DNA of 64,000 nucleotides from Dokdonia sp. (GTDB lineage: Bacteria > Bacteroidota > Bacteroidia > Flavobacteriales > Flavobacteriaceae). Numbering within the stretch: position 1 is the stretch's first letter; each line of letters opens with the position of its first letter. Under the pieces are notes generated by a model. That model saw only the letters and a list, made by a program, of their open reading frames with translations. It did not search any database and had not been told where the DNA came from. Shown here one piece after another: positions 1,517 through 62,219 of the stretch. The position numbers and the translations under genes were made by a program. The stretch is from contig JAHDIF010000010.1 in NCBI GenBank assembly GCA_020630915.1, positions 30,210 through 94,209 on the forward strand. Reading direction: 5' to 3'.

Positions 1517-2650
1517 ATGAGCAATAAAATTAGATGGGGCGTCCTTGGTGGCGGTGGCGATAGTTTAATAGGCGTGTTGCACCGTGTGGCTGCGAGTATG
1601 TTTGACGCTTACCAGCTTACAGGGGCCGTTTTTAACCCGGATTTTGAGGAGAATATTGCTTTCGCGAAAGCAATAGGAATCCCCACCAATCGTATTTATA
1701 AAGATTTTGATACGATGGTCGCAGAAGAGTTAAAGCTACCAGCAGAAGAGCGTATTCAGGTGTTTTCTGTCTTGACGCCTAACTTCTTACATTTCCCAAT
1801 GGCAAAGAAGTTGTTAGAATCAGGCTTTCACGTGATCTGTGAGAAACCTATGACGATGACGCACGCCGAAGCCTTGGAGCTAGAAGCGATACATCAGCAA
1901 AAAGGAGTGCATTTTGCCCTCACGCATACCTATACAGGTTACCCAATGGTACGTCAGATGAAAGCAATGATTGCAGCCGGAGAACTAGGCGAAATACAAA
2001 AGATAGATGCCCAATATTATCAAGGTTGGATTAACCCCATTATACACGACCCAGCGCAACGCTCTAGTACGTGGCGGTTAGATCCTAGCAAATCTGGAAT
2101 AAGCTGTTGTATGGGAGATATAGGAGTACATGCGTACCAGATGCTCGAGTATGTAACTGGGATGGATATCAAAGCGATTCTTGCAGACTTAAATCATCTG
2201 TATGATGATAACCAGATGGATATAGATGGTACCGTTTTATTACGTCTAGGTGCCAATGCTAAAGGCGTTTTGCGGGCTAGCCAGATAGCCACAGGAGAAG
2301 AAAATAATTTTACTGTAGCTATTTATGGAAAGAAAGCGAGTCTAAAATGGGAACAAGAGAACCCCAACTATTTGTATTTACTAGAAGATGGACATCCCGT
2401 ACGCACACTAAAACCTGGACATCAGTATAATAATGCAATATCACTTGACGGCACAAAACTTCCTCCAGGACATCCAGAAGGAATTTTTGATGCGATGGGT
2501 AATATTTATAAGGGAATGGCAAAGGCCGTGCGCGGTCAAGATCACGACCCTATGGAATTCCCGAGTATGCGAGATGGTGTGCGTGGCATGAGCTTTATCG
2601 AGAAGGCCGTGCAGTCGCATAGGGATGGGAATGTGTGGGTTGAATTATAA
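1517..2650 (+). CDS. Gfo/Idh/MocA family oxidoreductase
   Basis: Rossmann-like GVLGGGG start, HVICEKP motif, GDIGVH. Confidence 0.92.
   Translation: MSNKIRWGVLGGGGDSLIGVLHRVAASMFDAYQLTGAVFNPDFEENIAFAKAIGIPTNRIYKDFDTMVAEELKLPAEERIQVFSVLTPNFLHFPMAKKLLESGFHVICEKPMTMTHAEALELEAIHQQKGVHFALTHTYTGYPMVRQMKAMIAAGELGEIQKIDAQYYQGWINPIIHDPAQRSSTWRLDPSKSGISCCMGDIGVHAYQMLEYVTGMDIKAILADLNHLYDDNQMDIDGTVLLRLGANAKGVLRASQIATGEENNFTVAIYGKKASLKWEQENPNYLYLLEDGHPVRTLKPGHQYNNAISLDGTKLPPGHPEGIFDAMGNIYKGMAKAVRGQDHDPMEFPSMRDGVRGMSFIEKAVQSHRDGNVWVEL
1658..1671. repeat. Iterated palindrome GCTTTCGCGAAAGC, coding copy (AFAKA); extends to a 22-bp perfect palindrome at 1654-1675
   Basis: tattgctttcgcgaaagcaata read directly. 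Confidence 0.95.
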
Positions 2651-2687
2651 CATCTGCAAAGGCAGATGTCTTGTAAAAGCTATATAA

Positions 2688-2701
2688 GCTTTCGCGAAAG
2701 C
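2688..2701. repeat. Iterated palindrome, intergenic; extends to 20 bp (2685-2704)
   Basis: taagctttcgcgaaagctta. Confidence 0.95.
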
Positions 2702-2735
2702 TTAAATGAATAATAATCGTAACGAGTGGGCGGAT

Positions 2736-2761: not shown

Positions 2762-2809
2762 AAAGAATTAGAAACTATAAAAAGATCTCCGCCTATGCGG
2801 AGAATTAAT

Positions 2810-3862
2810 ATGAAAACAATAAAAGGACCAGCCGTTTTTCTTGCCCAGTTTATGGATGATAAGGCACCATTTAACTCATTAGACGGATTGTGCAAATGGG
2901 CATCAGATTTAGGGTACAAAGGCATACAAATCCCAACCTGGGAAACACGATTAATAGACTTAACTACTGCAGGTGAGAGCAAGACCTATTGCGACGAGCT
3001 TAAAGGAAAGATCAATAGTTACGGTCTTGAAATTACAGAACTGTCTACACACTTGCAGGGTCAACTGGTTGCTGTGCATCCTGCCTATGACTTGATGTTT
3101 GATAATTTTGCCCCAGATGACTGCAAGAATAATCCTAAAAAAAGAACAGAATGGGCTCGCCAGCAAGTGATAAGTGCGGCTCATGCAAGTAAGCATTTAG
3201 GATTGAGTGCAAGTGCCACTTTTAGTGGCTCCCTATTATGGCATACGATGCATCCTTGGCCGCAACGTCCTGATGGATTGGTAGAAATGGGTTTTGAAGA
3301 GCTGGCAAGCCGTTGGAAACCTTTATTAGATATTTATGATGAGTGTGGAGTAGATGTAGCCTATGAGATTCATCCTGGAGAAGATTTACATGATGGTGTG
3401 ACTTTTGAGCGTTTTCTGGAAGCTACGGGCAATCACAAACGTTGTAATATCTTGTATGACCCCAGTCATTTTGTGTTGCAACAGCTAGACTATCTTACCT
3501 ATATTGATCACTATCATGAGTTTATCAAGGCTTTTCACGTGAAGGATTCTGAGTTTAAGCCAGATGGGAAAAGAGGCGCTTTTGGAGGCTATAGTGATTG
3601 GAAAGACAGAGCAGGAAGATATCGCTCACCAGGAGATGGCCAAGTAGATTTTAAAACGATATTTACAAAGCTTACAGAATATGGTTGCGATGTATGGGCC
3701 GTAATGGAGTGGGAATGTTGTGTAAAAAGTCCAGAGCAAGGCGCTAGAGAAGGATCGCAATTTATTACAAACCATATCATTGAGGCCACTCAAAAACGCT
3801 TTGACGATTTTGCAGGGCAAGAAATAGATAAAGAGAAGTTGAAGAAAATTTTAGGATTATAA
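2810..3862 (+). CDS. Sugar phosphate isomerase/epimerase (AP endonuclease 2 / IolE-like TIM barrel)
   Basis: YEIHPGED, NILYDPSH, FHVKD and VMEWE metal-binding motifs; start moved to MKTIKGP at 2810. Confidence 0.9.
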   Translation: MKTIKGPAVFLAQFMDDKAPFNSLDGLCKWASDLGYKGIQIPTWETRLIDLTTAGESKTYCDELKGKINSYGLEITELSTHLQGQLVAVHPAYDLMFDNFAPDDCKNNPKKRTEWARQQVISAAHASKHLGLSASATFSGSLLWHTMHPWPQRPDGLVEMGFEELASRWKPLLDIYDECGVDVAYEIHPGEDLHDGVTFERFLEATGNHKRCNILYDPSHFVLQQLDYLTYIDHYHEFIKAFHVKDSEFKPDGKRGAFGGYSDWKDRAGRYRSPGDGQVDFKTIFTKLTEYGCDVWAVMEWECCVKSPEQGAREGSQFITNHIIEATQKRFDDFAGQEIDKEKLKKILGL

Positions 3863-4615: not shown

Positions 4616-4996
4616 GTGTTGCTAGATATCACGAGCCAGTTTCAATTAGATGGAGAGCTTGTTGTTGCAATCTTATTTGATTGTGTTTTGATGCTAGGGC
4701 TGAGTTGGTACTATAAAAAGTACCCACCTAAGGAAATCAATGAAATTTACGGTTTTCGTACGCGACGTACGATGGCTAATCAGGATATTTGGGATGCAGC
4801 AAATAGGCGCAATGCTCAGGATCTCTGGAAGTTTGCTATCTACCTTACTGTTTTTAGTATCGCCCTTATTGTGTTACATGTACCCTATGCATTTTTCCTT
4901 CATATGGGGGCGTTGCTCATAGGGCTGGCTATTGCAATATATGCCTCTATTCAGTATTTGGATAGACATTTTGACAAAAAAGGAAATAGAAAATAA
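4616..4996 (+). CDS. SdpI/YhfL family membrane protein
   Basis: YPPKEINEIYGFRT...W..AN motif between hydrophobic helices; GTG start uncertain. Confidence 0.75.
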   Translation: MLLDITSQFQLDGELVVAILFDCVLMLGLSWYYKKYPPKEINEIYGFRTRRTMANQDIWDAANRRNAQDLWKFAIYLTVFSIALIVLHVPYAFFLHMGALLIGLAIAIYASIQYLDRHFDKKGNRK

Positions 4997-5331
4997 TGGA
5001 AACCACCCATATTATTACGAGCCTCGCACCAGCCATTATGTTATTTTTAATGGCGATGATTGTTAAGTTTTTCCCACCTACGAGAAACAATAATGCACTT
5101 ATCATAAAGGCACCAGAATGGTGGGCTCGTGACCAGAAAACTTGGGATCGTGCACATAGTATGCTAGCAAAACGATACATGGTATTTAGCCTCGTACTGG
5201 CATTATTATGTGCTGTACTACTATTTCTTAAAGTATCTTACGGAGCGACTCTAGGTTACGCACTTCTTGCCGTACTTTTTGTGCTGGCAAATGTTCAAAT
5301 ACGCAAGTATATGAACTCAAATATCAAGTAG
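4996..5331 (+). CDS. SdpI-like membrane protein (divergent tandem paralog)
   Basis: Same topology; FPP..NN...W..AH echoes the upstream gene; 1-nt overlap. Confidence 0.6.
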   Translation: METTHIITSLAPAIMLFLMAMIVKFFPPTRNNNALIIKAPEWWARDQKTWDRAHSMLAKRYMVFSLVLALLCAVLLFLKVSYGATLGYALLAVLFVLANVQIRKYMNSNIK

Positions 5332-5394: not shown

Positions 5395-5408
5395 GCTTTC
5401 GCGAAAGC
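5395..5408. repeat. Iterated palindrome, intergenic
   Basis: Exact GCTTTCGCGAAAGC. Confidence 0.95.
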
Positions 5409-5482: not shown

Positions 5483-6346
5483 ATGATAAAATCCATGACA
5501 GGTTTTGGGAAAAGTGTGATCCAACTTCCCGGAAAGAAAATTACCATAGAAATCAAGTCGCTTAACAGCAAGAACCTAGATCTTAATGCGCGCATACCTT
5601 CTACATATAGAGAAAAGGAGTTGCATATAAGAAACTTAGTTGCCAAATCACTAGAGCGCGGAAAAGTAGATGTAGGATTGTACGTAGAAAGTACCGGACA
5701 AGCTACTAATACAAAAGTAAACGAAGGTGTAGTAAAAGAATATATGCGACAGCTAGAGGCAATTGCTCCTGGTGCTGTAGGATTTGACGATCAACTTAAA
5801 ATGGCAGTACGTTTGCCAGATGCCCTTAAGGTAGAACGAGAAGAGCTCGATGAAAATGAGTACACTGCGATATTGGACAACTTGAAAACCGCTTTAAGCG
5901 AAATAAATACCTATCGTGCAGATGAGGGAGCTTCATTAAAAGCAGAGTTTGAGTTACGTATAAGTAACCTACAGAGATTACTGGATGAGGTAATTGCTAT
6001 GGATGTAGATAGACTAGATAGTGTAAAGGTTCGTCTAGAAAAGGCAGTAGCAGACCTTAAAGTAGAGCTAGACGAAAACCGTTTTGAACAAGAACTTATT
6101 TATTATTTAGAAAAATACGATATCACAGAAGAGAAGGTGCGTCTCAAAAATCATCTAGATTACTTTACAGAAGCTTTGAATTCTGATGATTCTAACGGAA
6201 AGAAGCTTGGCTTTATAGGTCAAGAAATAGGACGTGAGATTAATACCATAGGCTCTAAATCTAATTATGCGCCGATGCAACAGTTAGTAGTGCAGATGAA
6301 AGATGAGTTAGAGAAGGTTAAAGAACAAGTTTTAAATGTGCTCTAA
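5483..6346 (+). CDS. yicC: YicC/YloC family endoribonuclease
   Basis: MIKSMTGFG start, EIKSLNSK, GKKLGFIGQEIGREINTIGSK; typical yicC-gmk synteny. Confidence 0.93.
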   Translation: MIKSMTGFGKSVIQLPGKKITIEIKSLNSKNLDLNARIPSTYREKELHIRNLVAKSLERGKVDVGLYVESTGQATNTKVNEGVVKEYMRQLEAIAPGAVGFDDQLKMAVRLPDALKVEREELDENEYTAILDNLKTALSEINTYRADEGASLKAEFELRISNLQRLLDEVIAMDVDRLDSVKVRLEKAVADLKVELDENRFEQELIYYLEKYDITEEKVRLKNHLDYFTEALNSDDSNGKKLGFIGQEIGREINTIGSKSNYAPMQQLVVQMKDELEKVKEQVLNVL

Positions 6347-6966: not shown

Positions 6967-7081
6967 ATGAGTGGAGAATGTCTATTGGACATTTTTGATT
7001 TTTGATTGAAAAAAGACTAGTTAAAGCATATTAAATAAACTGGATTGGGCTCAACCCTAATCCCTAATCTCTTATCCTTAA

Positions 7082-8607: not shown

Positions 8608-9108
8608 TTACCCTTCAATATGCGGTATACGCAATACTTGACCAGGATAAATCTTATCTGGATCTGTGAGCATAGGCTTATTTGCCTCAAAAATAATAGG
8701 GTATTTCATGGCATCTCCATACATTGCTTTTGCAATTTTACTTAGGTAATCTCCTTTTTCTACAGTATAAAAGCGAGCTTCTGGCTCAGTATGTTCAACT
8801 TCCATACGATCGTCTACTGCAGCTATACCGGAGGTATTCCCTACGACTAGGCGTATTTTTTCTCGGTTGGATTGATCATAAGCACGTCCAGAAACAGTTG
8901 CTGTATCTCCTTCTATAGCAATATGTAAATCTTCTACCTTTAAGCCTAGATCGTGTATTGTTTCAGACATACTGGCTGCTGCTTTTGCATTTGCCTCTCT
9001 TACCGCTGCACTTGCTGCCGCTGCTGCTTCTGCCGCTTCTTCTTCTTCTGTCTTTCCGATTCCAAAAACTTTGGCACCTGCGTTTTTAATAAATGAAAAT
9101 AATCCCAT
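8608..9108 (-). CDS. lysM: BON-LysM peptidoglycan-binding protein (YgaU/Kbp-like)
   Basis: MGLFSFIKNAG start, BON-like middle, LysM YTVEKGDYLSKIAK...IYPGQVLRIP. Confidence 0.9.
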   Translation of the reverse strand: MGLFSFIKNAGAKVFGIGKTEEEEAAEAAAAASAAVREANAKAAASMSETIHDLGLKVEDLHIAIEGDTATVSGRAYDQSNREKIRLVVGNTSGIAAVDDRMEVEHTEPEARFYTVEKGDYLSKIAKAMYGDAMKYPIIFEANKPMLTDPDKIYPGQVLRIPHIEG

Positions 9109-9175: not shown

Positions 9176-9189
9176 GTTTTCGCGAAAGC
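9176..9189. repeat. Iterated palindrome, 1-mismatch variant (GTTTTCGCGAAAGC)
   Basis: 13/14 match, intergenic. Confidence 0.75.
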
Positions 9190-9355: not shown

Positions 9356-10321
9356 TTATATTTTTGCGTGCTTTGCCATTTTCTTGGCCTTGAGCGCTTC
9401 TATTTCTTTTTTAATATCTGCCGTTTTCTTACGGATCTTAGGAGTTGTTTTTCCTTTTGCACCCTCAGCAGTTCTATACTGGATATATCCTTTTCCTCTA
9501 AACTGGTAGGTCGTACCAGAACTTACTTGATATAATTCTATGGTCTCGTCATCTATAACGGTAAGCTCAAAGAACTCATTGTCTGGAAAATTATAATCTA
9601 GTGTTAAAGTTTTTAGGTAGAAATCACCTGGTACGTTATCTACATCATAAATCCCGTCATAATCCCAAAATATATTATCAATAGGCGTGCCATTTGTGTC
9701 TTCTGAACTTCTAAAGTTTCCGCTTATTCCAGCAGGGAGGAATTGTAAGAAATTTTCGTAATCAAAAGGATTAATGTTTCCTGCATCACTAGTATATATT
9801 TTTTCCCAAGCCACGAATTCTTGCAAGAAATAATGAATATTCTCATAGAATACAAGATCATAGTCAAAGGTATTTCTTTGGTATCCTACAAGGATGTAAC
9901 TTGCTCCTGTGTTAGGGTGATATAACTCTATCTCATTACCAGATAATGTACGTACGTCAAAACTATACGTGCCATCGAGATCATGTGATACATCTAGCTC
10001 AAAATTTGGGTACGTATCATAAAAACCTACGTCTATACCAAAACCACCTCCATTGCTTCCTATGCCAGAAAGGTTATTGTTTGCAAAGATGTTTCCGTTT
10101 CTAAAAGAGATGGTAAACGCCTTTTGAAGAAAAGGTACCACGGTATTGCCAGATGAGCGGTCAATATCTACATACCAGATTTCATAATCATTTAATACGT
10201 TGTTAAGTGTAACCACAGGGACTACATCTACTACGTCATCTGCTACAATCACCTCTGTATAACAAGAGGTAAGTAGGGTTGCGGCTAGCGCAAATACCGA
10301 AAGGAGTTTCATCGTCTTCAT
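9356..10321 (-). CDS. Conserved hypothetical lipoprotein
   Basis: Start reassigned to MKTMKLLSVFALAATLLTSC (lipobox); the track's upstream extension crosses the palindrome and the gpsA promoter. Confidence 0.75.
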   Translation of the reverse strand: MKTMKLLSVFALAATLLTSCYTEVIVADDVVDVVPVVTLNNVLNDYEIWYVDIDRSSGNTVVPFLQKAFTISFRNGNIFANNNLSGIGSNGGGFGIDVGFYDTYPNFELDVSHDLDGTYSFDVRTLSGNEIELYHPNTGASYILVGYQRNTFDYDLVFYENIHYFLQEFVAWEKIYTSDAGNINPFDYENFLQFLPAGISGNFRSSEDTNGTPIDNIFWDYDGIYDVDNVPGDFYLKTLTLDYNFPDNEFFELTVIDDETIELYQVSSGTTYQFRGKGYIQYRTAEGAKGKTTPKIRKKTADIKKEIEALKAKKMAKHAKI

Positions 10322-10414
10322 AATCGTTCGTTGTTTGATTCGGTTAGTAAATACCAAACGGCGTGCCAAACTATTTAAGTATTTGAAAATCAATAAGTTA
10401 TTTGTTTTTATTAT

Positions 10415-10428
10415 GCTTTCGCGAAAGC
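10415..10428. repeat. Iterated palindrome, intergenic; extends to 22 bp (10411-10432)
   Basis: ttatgctttcgcgaaagcataa. Confidence 0.95.
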
Positions 10429-10470
10429 ATAAAACCCACGATCTTCCTCTTATTATCCCTAAAATTGTAC

Positions 10471-10478
10471 TATTTTTG
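10471..10478 (+). promoter_or_regulatory. Putative -7 element (TAnnTTTG) for gpsA
   Basis: TATTTTTG 25 nt before the ATG. Confidence 0.4.
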
Positions 10479-10503
10479 AGTACCAACGAATGATACAACA
10501 TAT

Positions 10504-11502
10504 ATGTCCCAACCAACATTTGGAGTAATAGGCGGCGGAAGCTGGGCAACAGCCATAGTAAAAATGCTGTGCGAAAATCAATCTAAAATAGGATGGTATC
10601 ACCGTAGCATTTATGCTATCGAACATATCAAGAAAGAACAGCATAATCCTAACTACCTAAGCTCAGTAGAGTTTAAACCAGAACAACTACTACTGAGTAA
10701 TAATATTAACGAAGTAGTTGCCTTTGCAGATATCGTTATTTTTGCAGTCCCGTCAGCCTTTGTGGGTGGTGAACTTGAGCATCTCACAGAGTCTCTGGAG
10801 GGCAAGATTATTTTTTCGGCAATAAAAGGGATTATGCCTGAAAGCGGGAAGTTAGTAGGAGCTCATTTTCACGATGAGTACAACATTCCTTTTGAGGATA
10901 TTGGGGTAGTTTCGGGACCTTGCCATGCAGAAGAAGTAGCACTAGAAAGACTCTCATATTTAACCATCGCCTGTGCAAATGAAACAACGGCACAACTCGT
11001 GGCAGATAACCTTTCTAGTAATTATATAAAGTGTACAACCAGTGATGATATCATTGGGATTGAGTATGCAGCAACACTTAAAAATATTTATGCTATTGCC
11101 GCTGGGATTGCTCACGGCCTTGGGTATGGAGACAACTTCCAGAGTGTGCTTATGAGTAACGCCATACGTGAGATTAAACGATACGTAAAAAAGGCGCATA
11201 AGATGAAACGGGATATTAACGGCTCTGCATATCTTGGAGATCTTCTTGTAACGGGCTATTCTACCTTTTCTCGTAATCGCATGTTTGGAAATATGATAGG
11301 GAAGGGATACACCGTAAAAAGCGCCCAGATGGAGATGAGTATGGTGGCAGAAGGGTACTATGCGGCAAAAAGCGCTTTAGACCTTAACAATACAAGAGAT
11401 AAAAAAGCTCGCATTCCTATTATTGAAGCAGTGCACAGCATTCTTTATAAAGGCAAAGATGCCAAGAAGGTGTTTAAAAAGCTTACGGAGCGGTTAGATT
11501 AA
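10504..11502 (+). CDS. gpsA: NAD(P)H-dependent glycerol-3-phosphate dehydrogenase
   Basis: GGGSWATA, SAIKG, SGPCHAEEV, LKNIYAIAAG, GDLLVT..S.FSRN. Confidence 0.95.
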   Translation: MSQPTFGVIGGGSWATAIVKMLCENQSKIGWYHRSIYAIEHIKKEQHNPNYLSSVEFKPEQLLLSNNINEVVAFADIVIFAVPSAFVGGELEHLTESLEGKIIFSAIKGIMPESGKLVGAHFHDEYNIPFEDIGVVSGPCHAEEVALERLSYLTIACANETTAQLVADNLSSNYIKCTTSDDIIGIEYAATLKNIYAIAAGIAHGLGYGDNFQSVLMSNAIREIKRYVKKAHKMKRDINGSAYLGDLLVTGYSTFSRNRMFGNMIGKGYTVKSAQMEMSMVAEGYYAAKSALDLNNTRDKKARIPIIEAVHSILYKGKDAKKVFKKLTERLD

Positions 11503-14298: not shown

Positions 14299-14312
14299 GC
14301 TTTCGCGAAAGC
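14299..14312. repeat. Iterated palindrome, intergenic
   Basis: Exact match. Confidence 0.95.
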
Positions 14313-14318: not shown

Positions 14319-14675
14319 CTACGCAATCAATTCTTTTTCTATAAAATATTGTACAATAGCATCCTTCATAAGGATTTGTTGTTCTCCTGCCTTTAAAGCA
14401 GGGAGCGGTTCTAGCATTTTATAATGGGGCCAGCCATCAGGGTCTTCAAAATCGAATTGATAATACCCAAAAGGCTCCAATAATCGGCATATTGCAATAT
14501 GCATTAAATTTACTTTATCATCTTTTTTGAAGGGTCTATTGAGCTGTCCTAATTCTTGTAGTCCTATAAGGTAAATAATACTATCAAGATCTAGGGTGTC
14601 GCCCTCCGCAAAGCGTTCTGATAGTTTTGCAACTACTGCTTCCCATCGTTCTTTAAGTTGTTCATCCCTTGCCAT
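14319..14675 (-). CDS. Conserved hypothetical protein
   Basis: Start reassigned to MARDEQLKERW at 14675, preceded by TATCTTTGTCCT. Confidence 0.75.
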   Translation of the reverse strand: MARDEQLKERWEAVVAKLSERFAEGDTLDLDSIIYLIGLQELGQLNRPFKKDDKVNLMHIAICRLLEPFGYYQFDFEDPDGWPHYKMLEPLPALKAGEQQILMKDAIVQYFIEKELIA

Positions 14676-14679
14676 AGGA

Positions 14680-14687
14680 CAAAGATA
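14680..14687 (-). promoter_or_regulatory. -7 element TATCTTTG 4 nt before the ATG at 14675
   Basis: Identical 15-mer to the yicC start region. Confidence 0.6.
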
Positions 14688-14793
14688 CCTCCTTTTTAAG
14701 GGATTAGGGTAGTAAGGGAGTAGTTGAATAGTTGAACCATTGAAAGAAATTAATAAAATAGAGGTAAAGATTTTATTTGTCTTGTCTAGTAAT

Positions 14794-14853
14794 TTCAAGT
14801 TCAAGTAGAAGTTCGATTTTGATTTCTATTTCTATTTCGATTTCGATTTCAAA
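14794..14853. repeat. Degenerate hexamer tandem array (10 units: TTCAAG/TTCGAT/TTCTAT)
   Basis: 6-nt periodicity read directly. Confidence 0.75.
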
Positions 14854-17761: not shown

Positions 17762-18061
17762 TTAGATGAAATTTTTGGGCGGAGGTAAGTGAATATCTAC
17801 AGTAAAAGAACTCTCACCTAAAGAGTATGAACTATTGTAGCATTTAATATGTTCTATCGCTGCCAGCTGTGGCGTTACAAAGGTTTCAAAGAAAGTGTTT
17901 TTCTCCTCTAACTCTTTTTTGGTTTCTTTTTGAGTATCATCTTCACCTAGGTCGGTAGAAATTTCTATATCATAGTGGTCATTCCATATTGAAATGACGG
18001 ATGGCGTAACTATCGATGTAGATAGTATAAAAACTATTATGATATGTGACCACTTATACAT
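17762..18061 (-). CDS. Small hypothetical protein with N-terminal TM helix and C-terminal HLPPP motif
   Basis: 99 aa ATG ORF directly upstream of sulP. Confidence 0.65.
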   Translation of the reverse strand: MYKWSHIIIVFILSTSIVTPSVISIWNDHYDIEISTDLGEDDTQKETKKELEEKNTFFETFVTPQLAAIEHIKCYNSSYSLGESSFTVDIHLPPPKNFI

Positions 18062-18108
18062 GAACTATAAAAATAACTAATGTATATCATAAATAAGCTA
18101 AATAGCAC

Positions 18109-45607: not shown

Positions 45608-45621
45608 GCTTTCGCGAAAGC
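45608..45621. repeat. Iterated palindrome in a divergent promoter region
   Basis: Exact match. Confidence 0.95.
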
Positions 45622-49301: not shown

Positions 49302-49315
49302 GCTTTCGCGAAAGC
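49302..49315. repeat. Iterated palindrome 3 nt after a stop codon
   Basis: Exact match. Confidence 0.95.
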
Positions 49316-49414: not shown

Positions 49415-51472
49415 CTACCAGATACGAACTCTTTTTTCTGGCGCAAGCCACATGGCGTCTCCTTCTTTAATATCAAATGCTTCGTAAAAAGCATCTACAT
49501 TGAGTAATGGTTGTACAGCACGTACTTTTCCAGGAGAGTGTGGGTCTGTTTTAATTTGTGTTCTTAATGCTTCATCACGACTAAGGGTTCTCCATACCGT
49601 TGCCCAGCTCATAAAGAAGCGTTGTTCTGGCGTAAAACCATCGATATTTTCTGGACGACCATTTGTTGCATAGAACTTTTGAAGTCCGTCATACGCTCCA
49701 AGCACCCCGCCAAGGTCTCCAATATTCTCGCCTAAGGTAAATTTGCCGTTTACATTTACACCTTCCAGTACCTCTACAGAATCATATTGTGCAGCAAGGG
49801 CATCACCACGTTCTGTAAATGCTGCTAGGTCTTCTGGAGTCCACCAGTTTTTAAGGTTTCCGTCACCATCAAAACGAGCACCACTATCATCAAAAGCGTG
49901 TGAAATCTCATGACCTATAACAGCTCCTATACCTCCGTAGTTTACCGCTTCATCTGCTGTGTAGTTGTAAAATGGCGGTTGTAATATGGCTGCTGGAAAA
50001 ACAATCTCATTGTTAAGAGGGTTAAAGTAGGCATTTACAGTTTGAGGAGACATTCCCCATTTAGACTTGTCTACAGGTTCACCTATATCTGCAAAATTCT
50101 TGTCTTGTGCCCATTTACTTACGGCAGTCATATTCTCAAAATAGGTCTTATCTGCAGACACCTCCATATCAGAGTAATCTTCCCACTTGTCTGGGTATGC
50201 AATTTTTACAGTGAATTTATCAAGCTTTTCTACGGCTTTCTTTTTTGTTTCTTCACCCATCCAGTCGAGATTCATGATGCGAGCTTTATAAGCTTCGATT
50301 ACGTTTGCAATCATAGTCTCTGCCTTTTCCTTTGCTTCTGGCGGAAATTTTGCGTCTACATATAATTGACCCAGTGCTTCTCCTACTGTACCATTTACGG
50401 TAGCTAGAGCTCTTTCATCTGCTGGGCGTTGTTGTTTGGAACCTCTTAGGTACTTGCTATAAAATTCCCAGTTTGCTTTTTCTATATCCGTACTTAATCT
50501 GCCAGTCGCACTATTAAAAGTATCCCAGCGCACTAAGGTCTTAAGATCTTCTATTGAGGTTTCTTTTAAGAATGTGTCTAGTGCACCAGTGTACCGTAAT
50601 TGTGTTACTATAAGAGTGTCAAATTTTTTTGTAACGCCTAAATCTGTGATCATTTTACCTAGATCTATGGTTGAGAGCATTTGATCAGCTTCGGCAATAG
50701 TTCTTGGATTGTTGTAGTTTCTAGCATCTCTAGATTCTACTTTGTCTAGTCGAGGCTCTGCAAGTGCAGTTTCCATGGCAAGAATCTTCTCTGCGGCAGC
50801 TGCGGCAGTAGCTTCATCATCTCCTAGCATTTGAAGCATACGAGCGATGTGTTTTTTGTATTCTTCACGAATCTCTATAGATTTTTCATCTGTTTCTAAG
50901 TAGTAGTCTCTATCAGGAAGGCCTAAACCGTTTGCTCCCAAATATACAGCATTCATTGCGCTGTTGTTTAAGTCTCCCTGTACACCTATACTAATAAAAG
51001 GCGATGAGACCGCAGGGTTTTTAGCCAGTACTGTCTGTAGATCAGATAGATTGTTGATTCCAGCAATGGCGTCTAATGCAGGTTGTAAGGGCTTAAGACC
51101 AGCTTTATTTCGCGCAAGCGTGTCCAATTTAGTGTCAAATATCGCAAGGGCTTTTGCCTGATCAGTATCTGCTCCATAATTTCCGCTTTCTTTTGCCTTA
51201 GCCAGGATCTCTAAAACATCGGCGTCAGTAGATTTACGTAATACTGAGAATCCTCCCCAGCTTGATCTATCTGCTGGAATCTCTGTGTTTTTCATCCAAG
51301 ATCCATTTACATAGTTGTAAAAATCTTGTTTTGGATCTACGGTTGTGTCCATATTCTCTAAGACAATCCCGGGAATTTTTTCTACCTGTGCGGTATCTTC
51401 GGCCTTTTCTTTACAGCTGTGCAATAATAATAGGCAAGAGGCTACAATGACTCCTGATTTTATAAGTTTCAT
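49415..51472 (-). CDS. M13 family metallopeptidase (PepO/neprilysin-like), lipoprotein
   Basis: VNAYF, HEISH, GENIGD, DPHSP motifs; lipobox LHSC. Confidence 0.94.
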   Translation of the reverse strand: MKLIKSGVIVASCLLLLHSCKEKAEDTAQVEKIPGIVLENMDTTVDPKQDFYNYVNGSWMKNTEIPADRSSWGGFSVLRKSTDADVLEILAKAKESGNYGADTDQAKALAIFDTKLDTLARNKAGLKPLQPALDAIAGINNLSDLQTVLAKNPAVSSPFISIGVQGDLNNSAMNAVYLGANGLGLPDRDYYLETDEKSIEIREEYKKHIARMLQMLGDDEATAAAAAEKILAMETALAEPRLDKVESRDARNYNNPRTIAEADQMLSTIDLGKMITDLGVTKKFDTLIVTQLRYTGALDTFLKETSIEDLKTLVRWDTFNSATGRLSTDIEKANWEFYSKYLRGSKQQRPADERALATVNGTVGEALGQLYVDAKFPPEAKEKAETMIANVIEAYKARIMNLDWMGEETKKKAVEKLDKFTVKIAYPDKWEDYSDMEVSADKTYFENMTAVSKWAQDKNFADIGEPVDKSKWGMSPQTVNAYFNPLNNEIVFPAAILQPPFYNYTADEAVNYGGIGAVIGHEISHAFDDSGARFDGDGNLKNWWTPEDLAAFTERGDALAAQYDSVEVLEGVNVNGKFTLGENIGDLGGVLGAYDGLQKFYATNGRPENIDGFTPEQRFFMSWATVWRTLSRDEALRTQIKTDPHSPGKVRAVQPLLNVDAFYEAFDIKEGDAMWLAPEKRVRIW

Positions 51473-56233: not shown

Positions 56234-56296
56234 AAAAACTCAACCGTATAATCACAAAAGTAATTGAATTACAAATAGACAAGAAAATTTTATGAT

Positions 56297-56304
56297 TAAG
56301 TTTG
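56297..56304 (+). promoter_or_regulatory. Putative -7 element TAAGTTTG
   Basis: Matches TAnnTTTG, 41 nt before the ATG at 56346. Confidence 0.5.
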
Positions 56305-56311
56305 CTTTATC

Positions 56312-56325
56312 GCTTTCGCGAAAGC
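56312..56325. repeat. Iterated palindrome in the probable 5' UTR
   Basis: Exact match, 16 bp with flanks. Confidence 0.95.
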
Positions 56326-56345
56326 GTAATCTTAATAATATACAT

Positions 56346-57296
56346 ATGAAGTCAAGAATATTAATTATAGGGGCTTGTGGTCAAATAGGAACAGAATTAA
56401 CTACAGCATTACGATCGCGTTTTGGGGCAGATAAAGTTGTAGCCAGTGATATACGAGAAGGAGATGAAGGGATGATGAATGCAGGACATTTTGAAATACT
56501 AGACGCTACTGATTATGCGGCTGTAGAAGATGTGATTTTTAGGTATAAGGTGGATACAGTATACTTGATGGCGGCTATGTTGAGTGCTATTGCAGAGCGT
56601 TTTCCAGCCAAGGCTTGGGATCTCAATATGAATTCATTGTTTCACGTGCTTAACCTGGCAAAAGATGGGAAGATAAAGAAGGTTTTCTGGCCCTCGAGTA
56701 TTGCGGTTTTTGGAAAAACAACACCCAATGAGAACACGCCACAGATGACGGTTATGGAACCTTCTACAGTATATGGTATTTCTAAACAAACTGGGGAGCG
56801 CTGGTGTGAGTACTATTATAACAAGTACGGCGTAGATGTGCGCAGCATACGCTATCCTGGGCTCATAAGTTATACCACAGAACCTGGCGGCGGAACTACC
56901 GATTATGCCGTAGATATTTATCATAGAGCACTTAAACATGGCCATTATAGATGTTTCTTAAAAGAAGGGACTACATTACCTATGATGTATATGGATGACG
57001 CCATAAGAGCAACTATAGGAATTATGGATGTAGATCTGGAGGATATTAAAATACGCTCTAGTTACAACCTGGCAGGAGTAAGTTATGCTCCAGAAGAAGT
57101 AACCATGAGTATCCAAAAGCATTTACCTGATTTTTCTATTACCTATGAACCTGACTTTAGACAAGAGATTGCAGACACTTGGCCTAAAAGTATAGACGAT
57201 TCGCAAGCGCGTAAAGACTGGGGATGGGCACATAAATTTGACTTAGATGCGATTACCAAGATTATGATAGAAAATCTTAGACCTCGATATACATAA
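56346..57296 (+). CDS. SDR-type L-threonine 3-dehydrogenase / NAD-dependent epimerase family
   Basis: GACGQIG, PSSIAVFG, YGISK, PGGGTTDYAV; start reassigned to MKSRIL. Confidence 0.85.
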   Translation: MKSRILIIGACGQIGTELTTALRSRFGADKVVASDIREGDEGMMNAGHFEILDATDYAAVEDVIFRYKVDTVYLMAAMLSAIAERFPAKAWDLNMNSLFHVLNLAKDGKIKKVFWPSSIAVFGKTTPNENTPQMTVMEPSTVYGISKQTGERWCEYYYNKYGVDVRSIRYPGLISYTTEPGGGTTDYAVDIYHRALKHGHYRCFLKEGTTLPMMYMDDAIRATIGIMDVDLEDIKIRSSYNLAGVSYAPEEVTMSIQKHLPDFSITYEPDFRQEIADTWPKSIDDSQARKDWGWAHKFDLDAITKIMIENLRPRYT

Positions 57297-57750: not shown

Positions 57751-59046
57751 ATGAAAACAGGACTCGTATGGTTTCGTAATGATTTACGTAGCGAGGATAA
57801 CGTGTCGTTATCACGAGCAATCCAAGATTGTGACCGTGTGATAGGTATTTATTGTTTTGACCCAAGGCAGTTTGTTGTAGGAGATTTTGGCTTTAAAAAA
57901 ACGGAGAAATATAGAGCACAATTTTTAATTGAAACTGTCGTAAACCTTAGATACAAATTAGGTAAGCTCAATATCAGCCTAGTCGTAGTTCACGACCTTC
58001 CAGAAAATGCGGTTCCTCAGCTTATTGAGGAGCAAGATATAACAGCACTCTACTCGCAAAAAGAATGGACGGAAGAAGAAAACAAAGTAACGAAGGCAGT
58101 AGAAACCGTAATCAATATTCCTCATCACGCGCAATTCGATCAGTTTTTATTTCATCCAGATGATATTCCTTTTGAGAGTGTTCGGGACATTCCACAAGTA
58201 TTTACGCAGTTTAGAAAAAAATGTGAGAAAGAAAGTAGCGTTCGGGATGAGCAGCTAGACAATAAAAAATTACCAGAGAGCAACCTCATTGAAAAGGCTT
58301 CTCAAATACCAACTTTGGAGGATTTAGGATTGGATCGTTTTGAAAAAGATAGTCGCACAGCCTTCCCTTGGAAGGGTGGACAGGATGCTGCTTGGGAGCG
58401 TCTCAACGATTATTTCTGGAACACCGAAAAATTGGCCTATTATAAAAAAACACGTAACGGTCTTGTAGGTAAAGATTACAGTTCGAAGTTTTCTGCGTGG
58501 CTAGCAAACGGTTCTATATCAGCCCGTCAGATATATTGGGAGGTGAAACGGTTTGAAAGCCAAATCAAAAAAAATCAAGACACCTATTGGCTCATTTTTG
58601 AACTCATCTGGCGAGATTATTTTAAATATGTCTCGCTCAAGCACGGAAATGATCTCTTTAAAATAGGAGGTATTTTACATAAAGAATACGACTGGAAACA
58701 TAATGATAAAGCCCAGAGAGATTGGATCAACGGCAATACCAAATATGATTTTGTAAACGCAAATATGGTCGAGCTTAAGGAAACGGGCTGGATGAGTAAT
58801 CGTGGTAGGCAGAACGTGGCTAGCTTTTGGGCAAAAGAGCTAGAGCAAGACTGGCGAGTGGGAGCAGCCTATTTTGAAAGTATGCTTATAGACTACGACG
58901 TGCACAGCAACTGGGGCAACTGGATGTATAATGCAGGTGTAGGTAATGACCCTCGTGACCGTAAATTTAATATAGAAAGACAGGCACAAATGTATGATGG
59001 TAATGGCACGTTTGTGCGGTTGTGGTTGCAGGAGAAGCTGTTTTAA
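57751..59046 (+). CDS. DASH family cryptochrome
   Basis: VWFRNDLR, YKKTRNGLVG.DYSSKFSAWLANG, GWMSNRGRQN, GVGNDPR. Confidence 0.93.
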   Translation: MKTGLVWFRNDLRSEDNVSLSRAIQDCDRVIGIYCFDPRQFVVGDFGFKKTEKYRAQFLIETVVNLRYKLGKLNISLVVVHDLPENAVPQLIEEQDITALYSQKEWTEEENKVTKAVETVINIPHHAQFDQFLFHPDDIPFESVRDIPQVFTQFRKKCEKESSVRDEQLDNKKLPESNLIEKASQIPTLEDLGLDRFEKDSRTAFPWKGGQDAAWERLNDYFWNTEKLAYYKKTRNGLVGKDYSSKFSAWLANGSISARQIYWEVKRFESQIKKNQDTYWLIFELIWRDYFKYVSLKHGNDLFKIGGILHKEYDWKHNDKAQRDWINGNTKYDFVNANMVELKETGWMSNRGRQNVASFWAKELEQDWRVGAAYFESMLIDYDVHSNWGNWMYNAGVGNDPRDRKFNIERQAQMYDGNGTFVRLWLQEKLF

Positions 59047-59146
59047 AATCAGGTAGGACGTAAGACTACTAACCAGTAAGTACAGCTTGTTTAGCCTTAC
59101 ATCATAACCAAAAAGAATTTAAATTCTAATACTAAAAAATTAATCT

Positions 59147-60706
59147 ATCAAAACCCTTAGACTACTACTCGGCGATCAACTTAATCATCAGCATTCTTGG
59201 TATGAAGATACTAATGACGAGGTGATTTATTTTATGGCAGAGATGCGCCAAGAGACCAATTATGTAAAACATCATATTCAAAAAGTAGTGGCCTTTTTTC
59301 AAGCAATGCGGGAGTTTGCAAGTTGGCTTAAAGAGCGTGGGCATACGGTAATTTATTACAGGTTAGACGATAAAAAAAATACAGGAGATTTAGTCAAAAA
59401 TCTTGAAGCTCTAATCAAAAATCACGGTATACAGCGGTTTGAATATCAAATGCCTGATGAGTACCGACTGGATGAAATGTTAGAACGCTTTCGCGAAACT
59501 TGTGCTGAGCGCAGTCGAAGTGGCGTCTCCATTCCCACCGAAGTATGCGACACCGAACACTTTATGACCACCCGTACCGAGCTTGCCGAATTTTACGAAG
59601 GCAAAAAGCAGTACACCATGGAATATTTCTACCGTATGATGCGTAAGAAATACGACCTGATGATGATAAACGATAAAGACCCCGAAGGTGGCAAGTGGAA
59701 TTTTGACCATAGCAATCGCAATAAGTGGAAGGGCGATGTAGAGATACCTCATGAGCGTAGTTTTAGGAAAGATGTGACCGAGATTGTGGAGCTGCTAGAA
59801 AAGGAAGATGTCGAGACAATGGGAAATATAGATGCGAAGCAGTTTAGCTGGCCTACAAGTCGGGAAGATGGGCTTTCTGTTTTGAACTACTTCTGCAAAA
59901 ACTTGTTAGTACATTTTGGCGATTATCAAGATGCGATGGATCCGGAAGAGGCCTATTTGTTTCACTCGAGACTGAGCTTTGCGATGAATAGCAAGTTGCT
60001 CTCTCCGCAGGAAGTGGTAGAAACTGTGATAGGATACTGGCGTGAGCATCAAGATGAGATAGACATCAGCCAAGTAGAAGGATTTGTAAGGCAAATTATA
60101 GGCTGGCGAGAATATATGCGCGGGATGTACTGGATGCAGATGCCCGCTTTCGCGAAAGCAAACCACCTAGAAAACCACAACAAACTCCCTGATTTTTACT
60201 GGACAGGTGAGACAAAAATGAATTGCCTTAAATGCAGTATAAACAATAGCCTAGATAATGCCTATGCTCATCACATACAGCGATTAATGGTGACAGGCAA
60301 CTATGCTTTACTTACGATGACAGAACCTAGTGAGGTAGATGCGTGGTACTTGGGAGTGTACATAGATGCGATTGAGTGGGTAGAAATCACAAACACACGT
60401 GGGATGTCACAGTGGGCAGATGGTGGTAAAATCGCGACCAAGCCTTACGTAAGTAGCGGTAGTTACATTAATAAAATGAGTAATTATTGCAAGGCTTGTC
60501 ACTATAAAGTGAGTAAGAAAACAGGCGAAGATGCCTGCCCTTTTAATAGTTTATACTGGAATTTTATAGACGAAAAGCAAGAGTATTTTAGAAATAACAG
60601 GCGTATGAGTATGATGCTCAGTTTGCTCAATAAAATGGAGAAAGAAACTCTTGCCACCCACAAAGAACGTGCAGACGACATCATAAAACACCCAGAAAAC
60701 TATTAA
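59147..60706 (+). CDS. phrB: PhrB/CryB-type FeS cryptochrome/(6-4) photolyase; conserved N-terminus begins at an ATC codon
   Basis: LLGDQL upstream of the track start, [20 protein letters not shown], four cluster cysteines (NCL, YCKAC, ACP). Confidence 0.88.
59487..59526. repeat. Palindrome copy interrupted by a 24-bp REP-like unit (ACTTGTGCTGAGCGCAGTCGAAGT) inside phrB
   Basis: GCTTTCGCGAAA...GCGT; GAGCGCAGTCGA shared with 13126-13141. Confidence 0.75.
60146..60159. repeat. Iterated palindrome in phrB (AFAKA)
   Basis: Exact match, preceded by CCC as in the REP arm. Confidence 0.95.
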
Positions 60707-62219
60707 ACCCGAGGTAAACATAGTATGGTTAAAACGTGACTTGCGATTGCAAGATCACTTGCCCTTGTACAATGCGCTTCAAGAGGATAGACCCCTATTG
60801 TTGCTGTATGTTTTTGAGCCTTCGTTGCTAGAAGATGATCACTACAGTGAGCGACATTTTAATTTTATAAGGGAGTCCCTACGTGATGTGCAGCGTCAAC
60901 TTTTGGAGCACAATTCACAGGTACTTATTGTTCAAGGTGAGGCGGTTGACGTATTTAAAACCTTGATTGAACGTGTAAAAATTCACACTGTTTTCTCGCA
61001 TCAAGAGACTGGATTAAAAATCACGTATGATCGCGATCTGGGATTGGAAGCTTTCGCGAAAGCGTTAAAAACCCAATCTCCAGAAAAAAAGTTTGGTTGG
61101 GTAGAGTTTATGAATAACGGCGTGCAACGCGGCCTCAAAAACCGAAAAGGTTGGGTAGGCGACTGGGAGTGGTTTATGAAACAGCCACAACTGTCTTTTG
61201 AGCCTAAGCTAGGACAACTTTTAAAGGTTGAAAAAGTACAAGCGCTAGCACAGCACTTTGAAATCCCTTCGTTAGAAACACCTGAGAATACTCCTTTTCA
61301 AAAAGGAGGGACACACACTGGCTTGAGATATTTACACTCCTTTTTAGAGGGTGAACGGTATAGAAACTATAGCAATCATATTTCAAAACCGTTGCTAGCA
61401 AGAAAGAGTTGTTCTAGGGTTTCACCGTATATCGCTTGGGGTAATTTGAGTGTTCGGCAGGTGTGGCAAGCGGCTAAATCCTTTAGGGCACAGTCTAAAA
61501 ACAAACGCGCCATTGACGGATTTACTTCACGATTACGCTGGCAAGCACATTTTATTCAGAAGTTTGAGATGGAAGATACGATGGAATTTGTGAGTGTAAA
61601 TAAAGGATATCATCACCTAAAGAAACCTAGAAATGAAAGCTATCAAAAAGCTTGGAGAGAAGGAAAGACGGGTTACCCTCTGGTAGATGCATGTATGCGA
61701 TGTCTCAATGAGACAGGATACCTAAACTTTAGGATGCGCGCGATGACCCTATCTTTTTTTACACATAATTTATGGCAACCTTGGCAAGATGCATCACATC
61801 ACCTTGCGCAGCAGTTTCTAGATTTTGAGCCGGGAATACACTATCCTCAAATCCAGATGCAAGCGGGAGAAACGGGTATCAATATGTTGCGTATTTATAA
61901 TCCTGTAAAAAATAGTGAAGAGCACGATCCAGAAGGCGTTTTTATTAAAAAATGGGTGCCAGAACTAGCCGAAGTACCACTGGCATATATACATAAGCCA
62001 TGGACTATGAGTGTCTTGGAACAGCAATTTTGTAACGTTAGTATAGGTGCAGATTACCCAGACCCTCTTATTAATATTAAAGAAACAGCAAAGCATGCTG
62101 GAGATATACTCTGGGAACTTAAAGAGAATACACTAGTAAAGCAAGACGCCTATCGTATCTTAAAACGCCACACGCTGGCTGATAGAAAAGTATGGGATGA
62201 GCCAGAAGAGACGAGATAA
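60702..62219 (+). CDS. DNA photolyase/cryptochrome family FAD-binding protein; conserved N-terminus begins at an ATT codon
   Basis: [12 protein letters not shown] lies upstream of the track's TTG; [41 protein letters not shown]. Confidence 0.88.
61050..61063. repeat. Iterated palindrome in the photolyase gene (AFAKA)
   Basis: Exact match. Confidence 0.95.

Follow-up and report, generated by a model that had tools for sequence, protein, structure and literature searches.

A long palindrome iterated across Dokdonia DNA: a candidate genome-wide sequence tag

The DNA analysed here is a stretch of 64,000 nucleotides (the window) from Dokdonia sp., of the family Flavobacteriaceae (contig JAHDIF010000010.1, assembly GCA_020630915.1), in which a pattern search recovered 19 exact copies of the palindrome GCTTTCGCGAAAGC. 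The genes of the window are ordinary housekeeping and metabolic genes, which include a nucleoside permease, oxidoreductases, gmk, nadD, gpsA, pheS, a carbonic anhydrase with a SulP transporter, the Bat operon, peptidases, cargo proteins of the type IX secretion system, and msrA. The BatA protein is 90% identical to proteins of "uncultured Dokdonia sp.", which bears out the flavobacterial host suggested in the preliminary description of this DNA. A crude gene set, covering approximately 92% of the window, was used to place the copies, and the start codons of the motif-bearing open reading frames (ORFs) were checked. The exact copies and their two closest variants are arranged as follows, in window coordinates.

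1658-1671, exact copy in the GFO/IDH/MocA oxidoreductase gene 1517-2650 (+), frame 0, encoding AFAKA
2688-2701, exact copy, intergenic, 37 nt past the stop of 1517-2650 and 93 nt ahead of 2795-3862
5395-5408, exact copy, intergenic, between an SdpI-like gene (4996-5331) and a YicC-family gene (5483-6346)
9176-9189, variant with one mismatch (GTTTTCGCGAAAGC), intergenic, between a LysM gene (8608-9108, -) and an ORF starting near 10321 (-)
10415-10428, exact copy in a divergent spacer, upstream of the likely true start (M at 10321/10312) of ORF 9356-10549 (-) and of gpsA (10504, +)
14299-14312, exact copy, intergenic, 6 nt past the stop of 14319-14804 (-) and 81 nt ahead of the pheS start (14217)
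18317-18330, exact copy in a TPR/SH3 (BatE-like) gene 18109-18882 (-), frame 0, AFAKA; exact in 7/7 other Dokdonia loci
21389-21402, exact copy in a TPR gene 20674-21564 (-), frame 0, AFAKA; L001 and L329 read GCTTTTTCCAAAGC, and L007 reads TCTTTTGCAACAGC
22592-22605, exact copy taking up the 27-nt spacer that separates batA (22613-23617, -) from the next vWA gene (21551-22585, -)
25025-25038, exact copy in gene 23617-25299 (-), frame 0, AFAKA; present in the window, L330 and L327, with GCTTTTGCTAAATC or TCTTTCGCAGAAGC in relatives
27601-27614, exact copy in an aldo/keto reductase gene 27424-28296 (+), frame 0, AFAKA; exact in 7/7 other Dokdonia loci
30873-30886, exact copy in an AlbA_2/DUF5929 gene 30059-31195 (+), frame 1, RFRES; exact in every Dokdonia locus covering the site
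31470-31483, exact copy in a metallophosphoesterase gene 31309-32058 (+), frame 2, LSRK; shared with D. sinensis (L005), and with two mismatches in L327 (GTTTTTGCGAAAGC)
37077-37090, exact copy, intergenic, between an SPFH/GYF gene (35889-37019) and 37129-38241
41731-41744, exact copy, intergenic, 9 nt past the stop of the 3-HAO gene (41754-42293, -) and 112 nt ahead of an aldehyde dehydrogenase start (41618)
45608-45621, exact copy in the divergent spacer of a CBS gene (45075-45539, -) and an M28 peptidase gene (45671-48022, +)
49302-49315, exact copy in a convergent spacer, 3 nt past the stop of 48489-49298 (+) and 99 nt past the stop of an M13 peptidase gene (49415-51472, -)
56312-56325, exact copy just upstream of the likely true start of an epimerase gene (ATG near 56346), inside the over-extended ORF 56292-57296
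59487-59500, variant with two mismatches (GCTTTCGCGAAACT), within the DPRP (cryptochrome-related) gene 59222-60706
60146-60159, exact copy in the DPRP gene 59222-60706 (+), frame 0, AFAKA
61050-61063, exact copy in a photolyase gene 60741-62219 (+), frame 0, AFAKA

All of the exact copies listed in the preliminary description were recovered at the same positions, as were the variants at 9176 and 59487, and the chance expectation of approximately 1.0e-4 copies per window was reproduced from the base composition. No copy appeared in 100 dinucleotide-preserving shuffles of the window. Near-copies are scarce, with two three-mismatch sequences being found in the window in addition to the two variants, and each megabase of Dokdonia DNA contains 293 exact, 14 one-off, and 21 two-off copies, the one-off variants being transitions for the most part. 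Three-off copies represent background, at 49 per Mb in Dokdonia versus 44 in other genera. This nearly all-or-none population of copies implies that the decay of individual copies is efficiently removed or reversed.

Two reservations raised previously, that the enrichment might be an assembly or adapter artefact or might be confined to the window, were not borne out. The part of the window between 18 and 28 kb is present in 20 public sequencing runs, which derive from at least 10 studies of metagenomes from algae, plants, marine sources, and biofilms, with an exact match in one run and the motif sites being kept in three runs of related strains, at 90-99% identity. The same sites recur in independent assemblies, which include isolate genomes (D. 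sinensis SH27) and several metagenome-assembled genomes (MAGs), and some lie in frame within conserved genes, while the motif is also found at many unrelated places in Dokdonia-type DNA. Considered together with the empty shuffles, these recurrences leave chance, artefact, or contamination with a negligible probability as the source of the motif.

The full signal is a 20-bp palindrome, TAY-GCTTTCGCGAAAGC-RTA, of which TACGCTTTCGCGAAAGCGTA is one form. The symmetrised flanks in the window read T at -3, A at -2, and Y at -1, where G is never found; the pyrimidine at -1 and the purine at +1 are each present in 17 of the 19 copies, as described previously. The preference is strongest in the spacers, where T occupies position -3 in 17/20 half-sites, and it is repeated at 113 further metagenomic sites, with C at -1 in 81%, A at -2 in 52%, and T at -3 in 69%. 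The specificity spans the whole 14-mer. All 21 occurrences of TTCGCGAA in the window fall within the motif or its two variants, TCGCGA is found outside the motif eight times, versus approximately 8.3 expected from the composition, and word counts in the window revealed no excess of lone half-sites, so that a role for the CGCG or TCGCGA core alone, as contemplated earlier, is not supported.

The flanks do not covary as the arms of a hairpin would. The base pair at -1/+1 is complementary in seven of the 19 window copies, against approximately eight expected, and beyond position 3, complementarity reaches 3.49 pairs of 10, compared with 3.28 in the shuffled control. The hairpin of the 14-mer DNA, at -2.1 kcal/mol, is no better than those of shuffles (the 20-mer reaches -6.3 kcal/mol), no T-run follows the copies, and the window returned no Rfam match at gathering thresholds. 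Base-specific flanks and weak folding suggest that each half-site is read by base identity on the duplex, rather than on a folded strand. The 3' half of either strand (positions 7-14) is GCGAAAGC, which we take to be the "extraordinarily stable DNA mini-hairpin" of Hirao et al., a resemblance that may be coincidental; nearest-neighbour folding assigned it 0 kcal/mol. The information in the core would amount to at least 28 bits, whereas approximately 11.7 bits would suffice to define sites at a density of one per 3.3 kb, and an excess of this kind appears typical of uptake sequences, and not of ordinary operator sites.

The exact copies in the window are divided between 10 intergenic sites and nine in well-supported coding sequences, which corresponds to a per-base density approximately ten-fold higher in the spacers than in the genes. 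The motif-bearing spacers are of all kinds (co-directional, divergent, and convergent), and the placement reported previously, in spacers, promoters, untranslated regions, and coding sequences, and after stop codons, held once the start codons had been checked. Pooling all Dokdonia-type DNA yielded 238-239 unique sites, with 136/239 in ORFs and 103 intergenic; the latter comprise 46 co-directional, 17 divergent, and 10 convergent sites, the rest lacking a called gene on one side. The genic sites favour frame 0 (67, 30, and 39 sites in the three frames) and lie on either coding strand. The motif is also enriched toward the 5' ends of genes.

The copies are also evenly spaced. The coefficient of variation of the gaps in the window is 0.52, compared with 0.95 under random placement (P = 0.0015), and the longest motif-free stretch is 7.0 kb (P = 0.016). 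The 37 gaps pooled from the window and four other loci have a mean of 3.19 kb and a coefficient of variation of 0.47, with both very short and very long gaps being scarce. Regularity of this type is predicted by a need for "coverage", and not by a pure mutational drive.

The history of individual copies can be followed in seven other Dokdonia genomes, which are collinear with the window and share 72-92% of its nucleotides. In a five-genome alignment, 14 of the 18 alignable motif sites (78%) are exact between species, versus 2.4-4.0% of control 14-mers, where overall identity is only 66-76%. At 27601, 18317, and 30873, the 14-mer is exact in all the genomes, even though the adjoining synonymous positions have diverged. 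The coding copies align gap-free, and the genomes that lack a given copy hold a substituted sequence of equal length, such as GCTTTTGCTAAATC and TCTTTCGCAGAAGC at 25025 or GCTTTTTCCAAAGC at 21389, which indicates that these copies were built in place by substitutions. The spacer alignments are too gapped to rule out insertion in those regions.

In the orthologues from other genera, the proteins are of equal length and have other residues at the motif positions. The BatE-like protein reads FHKYNLDKK in other genera, compared with Y-x-AFAKA in Dokdonia; the AlbA_2/DUF5929 protein reads IIHFEDNAN (HFEDN-like), compared with IIRFRESGT; and the aldo/keto reductase has AFTES- or AFLES-like segments, with other codons, in place of AFAKA. 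One gain, from LERK to LSRK, requires approximately seven substitutions. All seven AFAKA segments in the window (1658, 18317, 21389, 25025, 27601, 60146, and 61050) are encoded by the motif as GCT TTC GCG AAA, in which TTC, at 16% of the Phe codons, and GCG, at 13% of the Ala codons, are rare. Fixed rare codons, combined with differing residues in the orthologues, imply that the DNA word dictates the peptide, and not the reverse. The lineage proteome should thus hold hundreds of AFAKA, RFRES, and LSRK segments imposed by the motif.

Selection for the AFAKA peptide itself was rejected, given that half of the copies fall outside coding sequences, that the coding ones occur in three frames, and that their codons are both fixed and rare. 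The origin of the coding copies from a mobile element was also rejected, because there are no indels or target duplications in relation to the orthologues. The copies share no flanks (the loose ends agree at only approximately 50-60%). The footprint of a TA-targeting element and the action of repetitive extragenic palindromes (REPs) with their associated tyrosine transposases (RAYTs), both advanced in the preliminary description, thus fail for the coding copies, which arose by substitution, with half of all copies lying in genes. The earlier view that no single gene-regulatory role accounts for the motif is, by contrast, strengthened by its presence at many unrelated places, its conservation beyond the flanks, and its imposition on coding sequences.

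The distribution of the motif among lineages was surveyed at the BatA locus, with each flank extending to at most 10 kb, in 80 species-representative genomes. Four Dokdonia loci of approximately 20 kb each, including that of the isolate D. sinensis SH27, contain 4, 5, 7, and 7 copies, whereas no copy was found in the 76 syntenic loci of other genera (approximately 1.47 Mb, from Aquimarina, Winogradskyella, Algibacter, Leeuwenhoekiella, Cellulophaga, Olleya, and others), which contain a single instance of the inner 10-mer TTTCGCGAAA. No other iterated palindrome of at least 12 bp was detected in any of these 76 loci, which indicates that such words are not a family-wide habit with differing "dialects" at this locus. 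A metagenome scan with TACGCTTTCGCGAAAGC recovered 819 kb from 120 unrelated places, in which the 14-mer is found in exact form 209 times, and 35 of the 48 loci of at least 8 kb carry 2-6 copies, at approximately one per 4 kb. The motif is thus genome-wide in its lineage, rather than a property of the window, with about 1000 sites per genome. The HIP1-like system (HIP being a highly iterated palindrome) that had been suggested for a flavobacterium therefore stands as a genome-wide and lineage-specific feature, but not as one of the whole family; in the DNA sampled, it is found in Dokdonia and one genome labelled Nonlabens.

Two short contigs labelled as other phyla encode BatA proteins close to a Dokdonia-like protein, one from a "Pirellulaceae" MAG (L002, CAZKTR010001009.1; 90% identity) and the other from a "Chlorobiota" MAG (L049, JAADHG010000104.1; 77% identity). 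Both are probably mis-binned flavobacterial contigs.

In four of the public runs (X1, X4, X6, and X7), over window positions 18000-32000, the contig depth jumps 5-20-fold precisely at motif copies, where many "joints" and loose ends are also located. Short pieces of the assembly graphs, from other places in the genome, share the extended motif, and it is likely that the repeat breaks or mis-joins short-read assemblies of these genomes.

A scan of viral contigs with the bare 14-mer produced 120 hits, mostly single chance matches in unrelated GC-rich phages, and only a few contigs, of 36-39% GC, hold multiple copies. These include an HK97-type temperate siphophage (L321-L323, L171, and L196), with three exact copies and one one-mismatch copy in 21 kb, whose motif-bearing genome carries portal, prohead protease, capsid, tape-measure, terminase, and DnaB genes. 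A related prophage (L324 and L331; 61% capsid identity) resides in CP065365.1, labelled Nonlabens sp. SCSIO 43208. Members of this phage family keep 3-4 copies, and phage and prophage agree in having one within the prohead protease gene (frame 0, DTAFAKA), one within an HNH gene (frame 2, LSRK, the offset differing between the two HNH genes), and one just ahead of the tape-measure gene. The more distantly related Cellulophaga phage phi39:1 (45% capsid identity) has no copy, and reads TEFRTS where the others read TAFAKA; Nonlabens phage P12024S also has none, which is uninformative on the range of the motif. The approximately 7 kb of host DNA that flanks the Nonlabens-labelled prophage contains one more copy (L331:19511), and the motif is thus not strictly limited to genomes named Dokdonia. 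The copies kept in the phages imply that DNA residing in these cells acquires and keeps the tag, and the motif could help to assign phages to hosts. One siphophage contig (L322:5423-6370) has an extra N6/N4 DNA methyltransferase gene between a YopX-like gene and the portal gene, which is absent from the near-identical L321 and L323.

A small number of copies are interrupted by a GC-rich mini-hairpin. In the closest relative (L330, 92% identity), positions 7005-7050, orthologous to 22592-22605, read GCTTT-CCTGCCTTTGCCGGCAGGCAGG-CGCGAAAGC, with the copy between batA and the next gene being split by a hairpin of 22 nt, and the strain of run X4 has the same interruption at window position 22600 (20-22 nt over the two cases), which represents a strain polymorphism at a site of the window itself. 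Hairpins of the form CTGCC-loop-GGCAG also split copies in L236:5160-5200, L283:1049-1090, L318:5220-5265, and L327:18160-18200/L328. They are 16-22 nt in length, with a CTGCC/GGCAG stem, and are inserted after motif position 3 (or 11, by symmetry) or 5/6. Of approximately 10 such hairpins in about 1 Mb of Dokdonia-type DNA, 5-6 lie within motif copies, which cover only about 0.4% of the DNA. This excess suggests that, in vivo, the motif is subject to cutting or is favoured as a target, and the hairpin resembles a very small mobile element, or filler, aimed at the palindrome. Interrupted copies are rare (approximately 2% of sites), and their existence indicates that individual copies are dispensable.

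What is repeated here is neither a mobile element nor a motif of RNA or peptide. With slightly more belief than doubt, we lean towards an explanation in which GCTTTCGCGAAAGC would form the unvarying centre of a 20-bp palindrome and function in Dokdonia as a sequence tag of the whole genome, with a dimeric reader, and with the signalling of self DNA as its likely use. The observations show that copies are made in place by substitution, where the DNA or the protein tolerates them, and are then kept exact over species-level divergence. Their even distribution, at approximately one per 3.2 kb, extends across genes, spacers, and the temperate phages resident in these cells. A symmetric (homodimeric) and highly specific reader protein, presumably encoded elsewhere, may recognise the copies as double-stranded DNA, each half-site being read as T-A-Y-G-C-T-T-T-C-G, and imperfect copies may be removed by selection or by a biased conversion linked to this reader.

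The use of the tag is a more tentative matter. The leading candidate, which we regard as plausible and short of probable, is a "self DNA" signal for a whole-genome DNA transaction, with preferential uptake and/or recombination of conspecific DNA foremost, as in USS/DUS and in the recent proposals for HIP1. This use is favoured because the properties of the motif match those of uptake sequences and HIP1 best, in the information excess, the taxon-specificity, the reshaping of peptides at tolerant positions, and the even spacing, and biased uptake or recombination would itself drive a tag to high density and even spacing. By analogy with Riemerella columbina, a naturally competent member of the Flavobacteriales that prefers its own DNA (PMC7965970), the uptake of self DNA would be plausible in this order.

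A number of points weigh against this explanation, chief among which are the palindromy and the absence of evidence of competence in Dokdonia. Known uptake sequences are asymmetric and 9-12 bp in length, whereas a perfect palindrome of 14-20 bp would more usually be the target of a dimeric DNA-binding protein, such as Noc, ParB, or SlmA, and to our knowledge, natural transformation has not been reported in Dokdonia. No reader, competence gene, methyltransferase, or nuclease was identified, and the scan of all window ORFs of at least 99 amino acids, except for two cut by the window ends, encountered no methyltransferase, nuclease, transposase, RAYT gene, or obvious DNA-binding regulator, in agreement with the earlier statement that no candidate enzyme is encoded there. 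The conservation of the copies cannot, by itself, separate purifying selection from continual biased conversion, and the copies in phage structural genes fit the broader notion of a benefit to, or a drive acting on, whatever DNA resides in this cell, which is not specific to uptake. The approximately seven substitutions within 14 bp that convert LERK to LSRK are also awkward for stepwise selection.

The palindromy, the symmetric base-specific flanks, the even spacing, and the positional conservation are also in keeping with a binding site for an abundant dimeric protein that organises the nucleoid or tethers it to the membrane, as in Noc/NBS (Noc-binding sites), SlmA/SBS (SlmA-binding sites), MatP/matS, or ParB/parS, in which evenly placed sites would structure or anchor the chromosome, and selection on this architecture would keep them exact. 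The enrichment between genes and toward their 5' ends points in the same direction, as do the size and the TTTC...GAAA half-sites, which resemble the palindromes of 14-16 bp of NBS and parS. A nucleoid role was argued for HIP1, on the basis of conservation and periodicity, by Xu et al. 2018 (PMC5861425). The sites of a Dokdonia genome would be 10-40 times as numerous as those of the Noc, SlmA, MatP, or ParB systems, however, with two central bases between the half-sites, rather than the four of parS and NBS, and with an information content far beyond the needs of a binding site. Conserved copies in the capsid-module genes of phages are not predicted, and the window contains no candidate protein, so that a nucleoid function is rather unlikely. 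A repair bias with no function at the individual site appears less probable still, and distinctly so: here, a methyltransferase or mismatch endonuclease of long specificity would correct near-cognate mismatches toward the motif, either by the methyl-dependent repair proposed by Elhai for HIP or by a process like very short patch (VSP) repair. This would account for the all-or-none distribution, with its very few one-off and two-off copies, for maintenance at synonymous positions at a cost to protein sequence and codon usage, and for the same pressure in prophage DNA; the core holds CGCG and TCGCGA, which are typical methyltransferase targets, and HIPs have been tied to orphan methyltransferases (Elhai 2015, PMC4390886). 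Outside the motif, these inner words are neither enriched nor avoided, which means that the enzyme would need a specificity of at least 12-14 bp. We know of no methyltransferase or Vsr with such a specificity, the window has no gene for either, and a mutational drive alone fails to predict the even spacing and the deficit of close pairs, or to account for how sites several substitutions away are reached.

The mini-hairpins, with their excess within motif copies, their symmetric insertion points, and the strain polymorphism at 22592-22605, would be in keeping with a selfish or domesticated site-specific nuclease or recombinase, for which the motif would be the cleavage or target site, and with copies persisting through propagation or protection by the enzyme or by the hairpin element using the same site. 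This is very unlikely as the origin of the system, however, as interrupted copies are rare, the coding copies are free of indels and target duplications, the neighbourhood of the sites revealed no transposase or nuclease gene, and the creation of approximately 1000 new exact sites by substitution is left without an explanation. Action at the level of RNA or single-stranded DNA, as a terminator, an RNA-stability or processing hairpin, or a priming signal, could be suspected from the ten-fold intergenic enrichment, which extends to sites directly past stop codons, from the folding of the 20-mer, and from the presumed mini-hairpin of its 3' half. Nearly half of the copies are in genes, though, in all three frames and on either coding strand, others are found in divergent promoter spacers, and the base-specific, non-compensatory flanks, the shuffle-like stability of the 14-mer hairpin, and the lack of T-runs and Rfam matches in the window combine to render such a role highly improbable.

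The idea of a self tag in Dokdonia can be extended to a broader proposal, in which a long palindrome (20 bp, approximately 30 bits), shared with close allies and served by a dedicated dimeric reader, would govern the uptake, recombination, or protection of DNA, being copied by temperate phages and parasitised by a hairpin of approximately 20 nt. This proposal is possible, and somewhat doubtful. If true, it would represent the first uptake-sequence or Chi-like self-recognition system in the Bacteroidota, strong enough to rewrite hundreds of protein segments.

Comparison with the known classes of repeated words places the motif close to HIP1 (GCGATCGC) and the alternate HIPs, which are also hyper-abundant exact palindromes, found in genes and spacers, lineage-specific, propagated by substitution, and non-randomly spaced, with orthologous sites conserved beyond their flanks (Xu et al. 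2018, PMC5861425), as in the 78% versus 2.4-4.0% observed here. Their function is similarly debated among uptake, recombination, the nucleoid, and methylation. HIP1 differs in its length (8-10 bp, compared with the 14-bp core, or 20 bp with flanks, in Dokdonia), in its density (approximately one per 0.3-1 kb, compared with one per 3.3 kb), and in its phylum-wide range in the cyanobacteria, compared with a roughly genus-level range in the Bacteroidota, while the Dokdonia motif has no known cognate methyltransferase, no enrichment of the inner TCGCGA and CGCG words, and almost no degenerate copies. The uptake signal sequences (USS) of the Pasteurellaceae and the DNA uptake sequences (DUS) of the Neisseriaceae are likewise taxon-specific over-represented words, at approximately one per 1-4 kb in genes and spacers, with spacer enrichment, a preferred reading frame, peptides reshaped at tolerant positions, even spacing, information far above need, and copies in resident prophages, but they are asymmetric, 9-12 bp in length, and have receptors in the competence pilus machinery, in contrast with a perfect palindrome. 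Chi (RecBCD/AddAB) is a self-identifying over-represented word of similar density (approximately one per 3-5 kb) and broad distribution, which is, however, 5-8 nt long, asymmetric, read on a single strand, and replication-skewed, whereas orientation is impossible in a palindrome of 14-20 bp with dimer-like flanks.

The parS, NBS, SBS, and matS sites are perfect or near-perfect palindromes of 12-16 bp that are read by dimers, and the palindromic Dokdonia motif, with its symmetric flanks, may be bound by a dimer too. The TTTC...GAAA half-sites are common to parS and NBS, which differ from the motif in half-site spacing, and all four types are regionally confined, at approximately 10-100 sites, whereas the motif recurs at about one per 3.3 kb everywhere sampled, including coding sequences and phages. 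REP elements and bacterial interspersed mosaic elements (BIMEs) with RAYT, miniature inverted-repeat transposable elements (MITEs), and Elhai's SDR are also short palindromic repeats with hundreds of copies. The REPs and MITEs are, however, extragenic, longer, imperfect (20-40 nt in REP), and inserted as units, and the motif shows no indel in relation to orthologues, lies in frame in genes, and lacks hairpin covariation; it is the CTGCC...GGCAG hairpin nested in some copies that behaves like an SDR or mini-MITE. The targets of restriction-modification systems are avoided in the host genome, whereas the motif is massively enriched, with TCGCGA outside it at its expected count.

A search of 8.3 million full texts found neither GCTTTCGCGAAAGC nor the 12-mer core CTTTCGCGAAAG as strings, and literature searches yielded nothing relevant on HIPs in the Bacteroidetes, on Dokdonia palindromes or methylomes, or on uptake sequences in the Bacteroidota, with the HIP literature recovered being restricted to the cyanobacteria. 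No prior description of the motif was thus found, while the class of over-represented words to which it belongs (Chi, USS/DUS, and HIP1) is already known. What is new in this member is its length of 14-20 bp, its nearly all-or-none distribution, its occurrence in approximately one genus of the Bacteroidota, its mirroring in temperate phages, and its parasitism by a mini-hairpin. HIP1 has now been reported to enhance transformation, in a methylation- and homology-dependent manner, and its abundance to correlate with secretion-system proteins that the authors tie to DNA uptake (bioRxiv 10.1101/2024.09.10.611283, 10.64898/2026.06.24.733823).

Few classes of genome-wide "words" are known (Chi, USS/DUS, and HIP1), and the function of HIP1 has been argued over for 30 years, so that an independent example in another phylum offers a second case for asking what purpose such tags serve. 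The Dokdonia motif is much longer, essentially all-or-none, and restricted to a culturable marine genus with sequenced isolates, and the contrast with neighbouring genera makes the phylogenetic profiling of genes against the motif, together with pull-down of the reader, straightforward. The motif may be used as a binning marker and, should it favour uptake or recombination in the way that HIP1 does, may make Dokdonia easier to manipulate genetically. It also demonstrates that a signal at the level of DNA can strongly shape protein sequences.

Two gene clusters of the window merit description. A complete Bat/MoxR operon of the aerotolerance type occupies positions 18109-27301 (-), comprising MoxR ATPase, DUF58, a protein of 560 aa without a Pfam match, BatA, a second vWA protein, TPR, BatD, and TPR-SH3; it is collinear across approximately 80 Flavobacteriaceae genomes, and holds four motif copies in the window. 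Three genes of the photolyase/cryptochrome family are located in a row (photolyase 57751-59046, DPRP 59222-60706, and photolyase 60741-62219), followed by DUF2805, DUF2452, and msrA, which together form a gene cluster related to light and oxidative damage.

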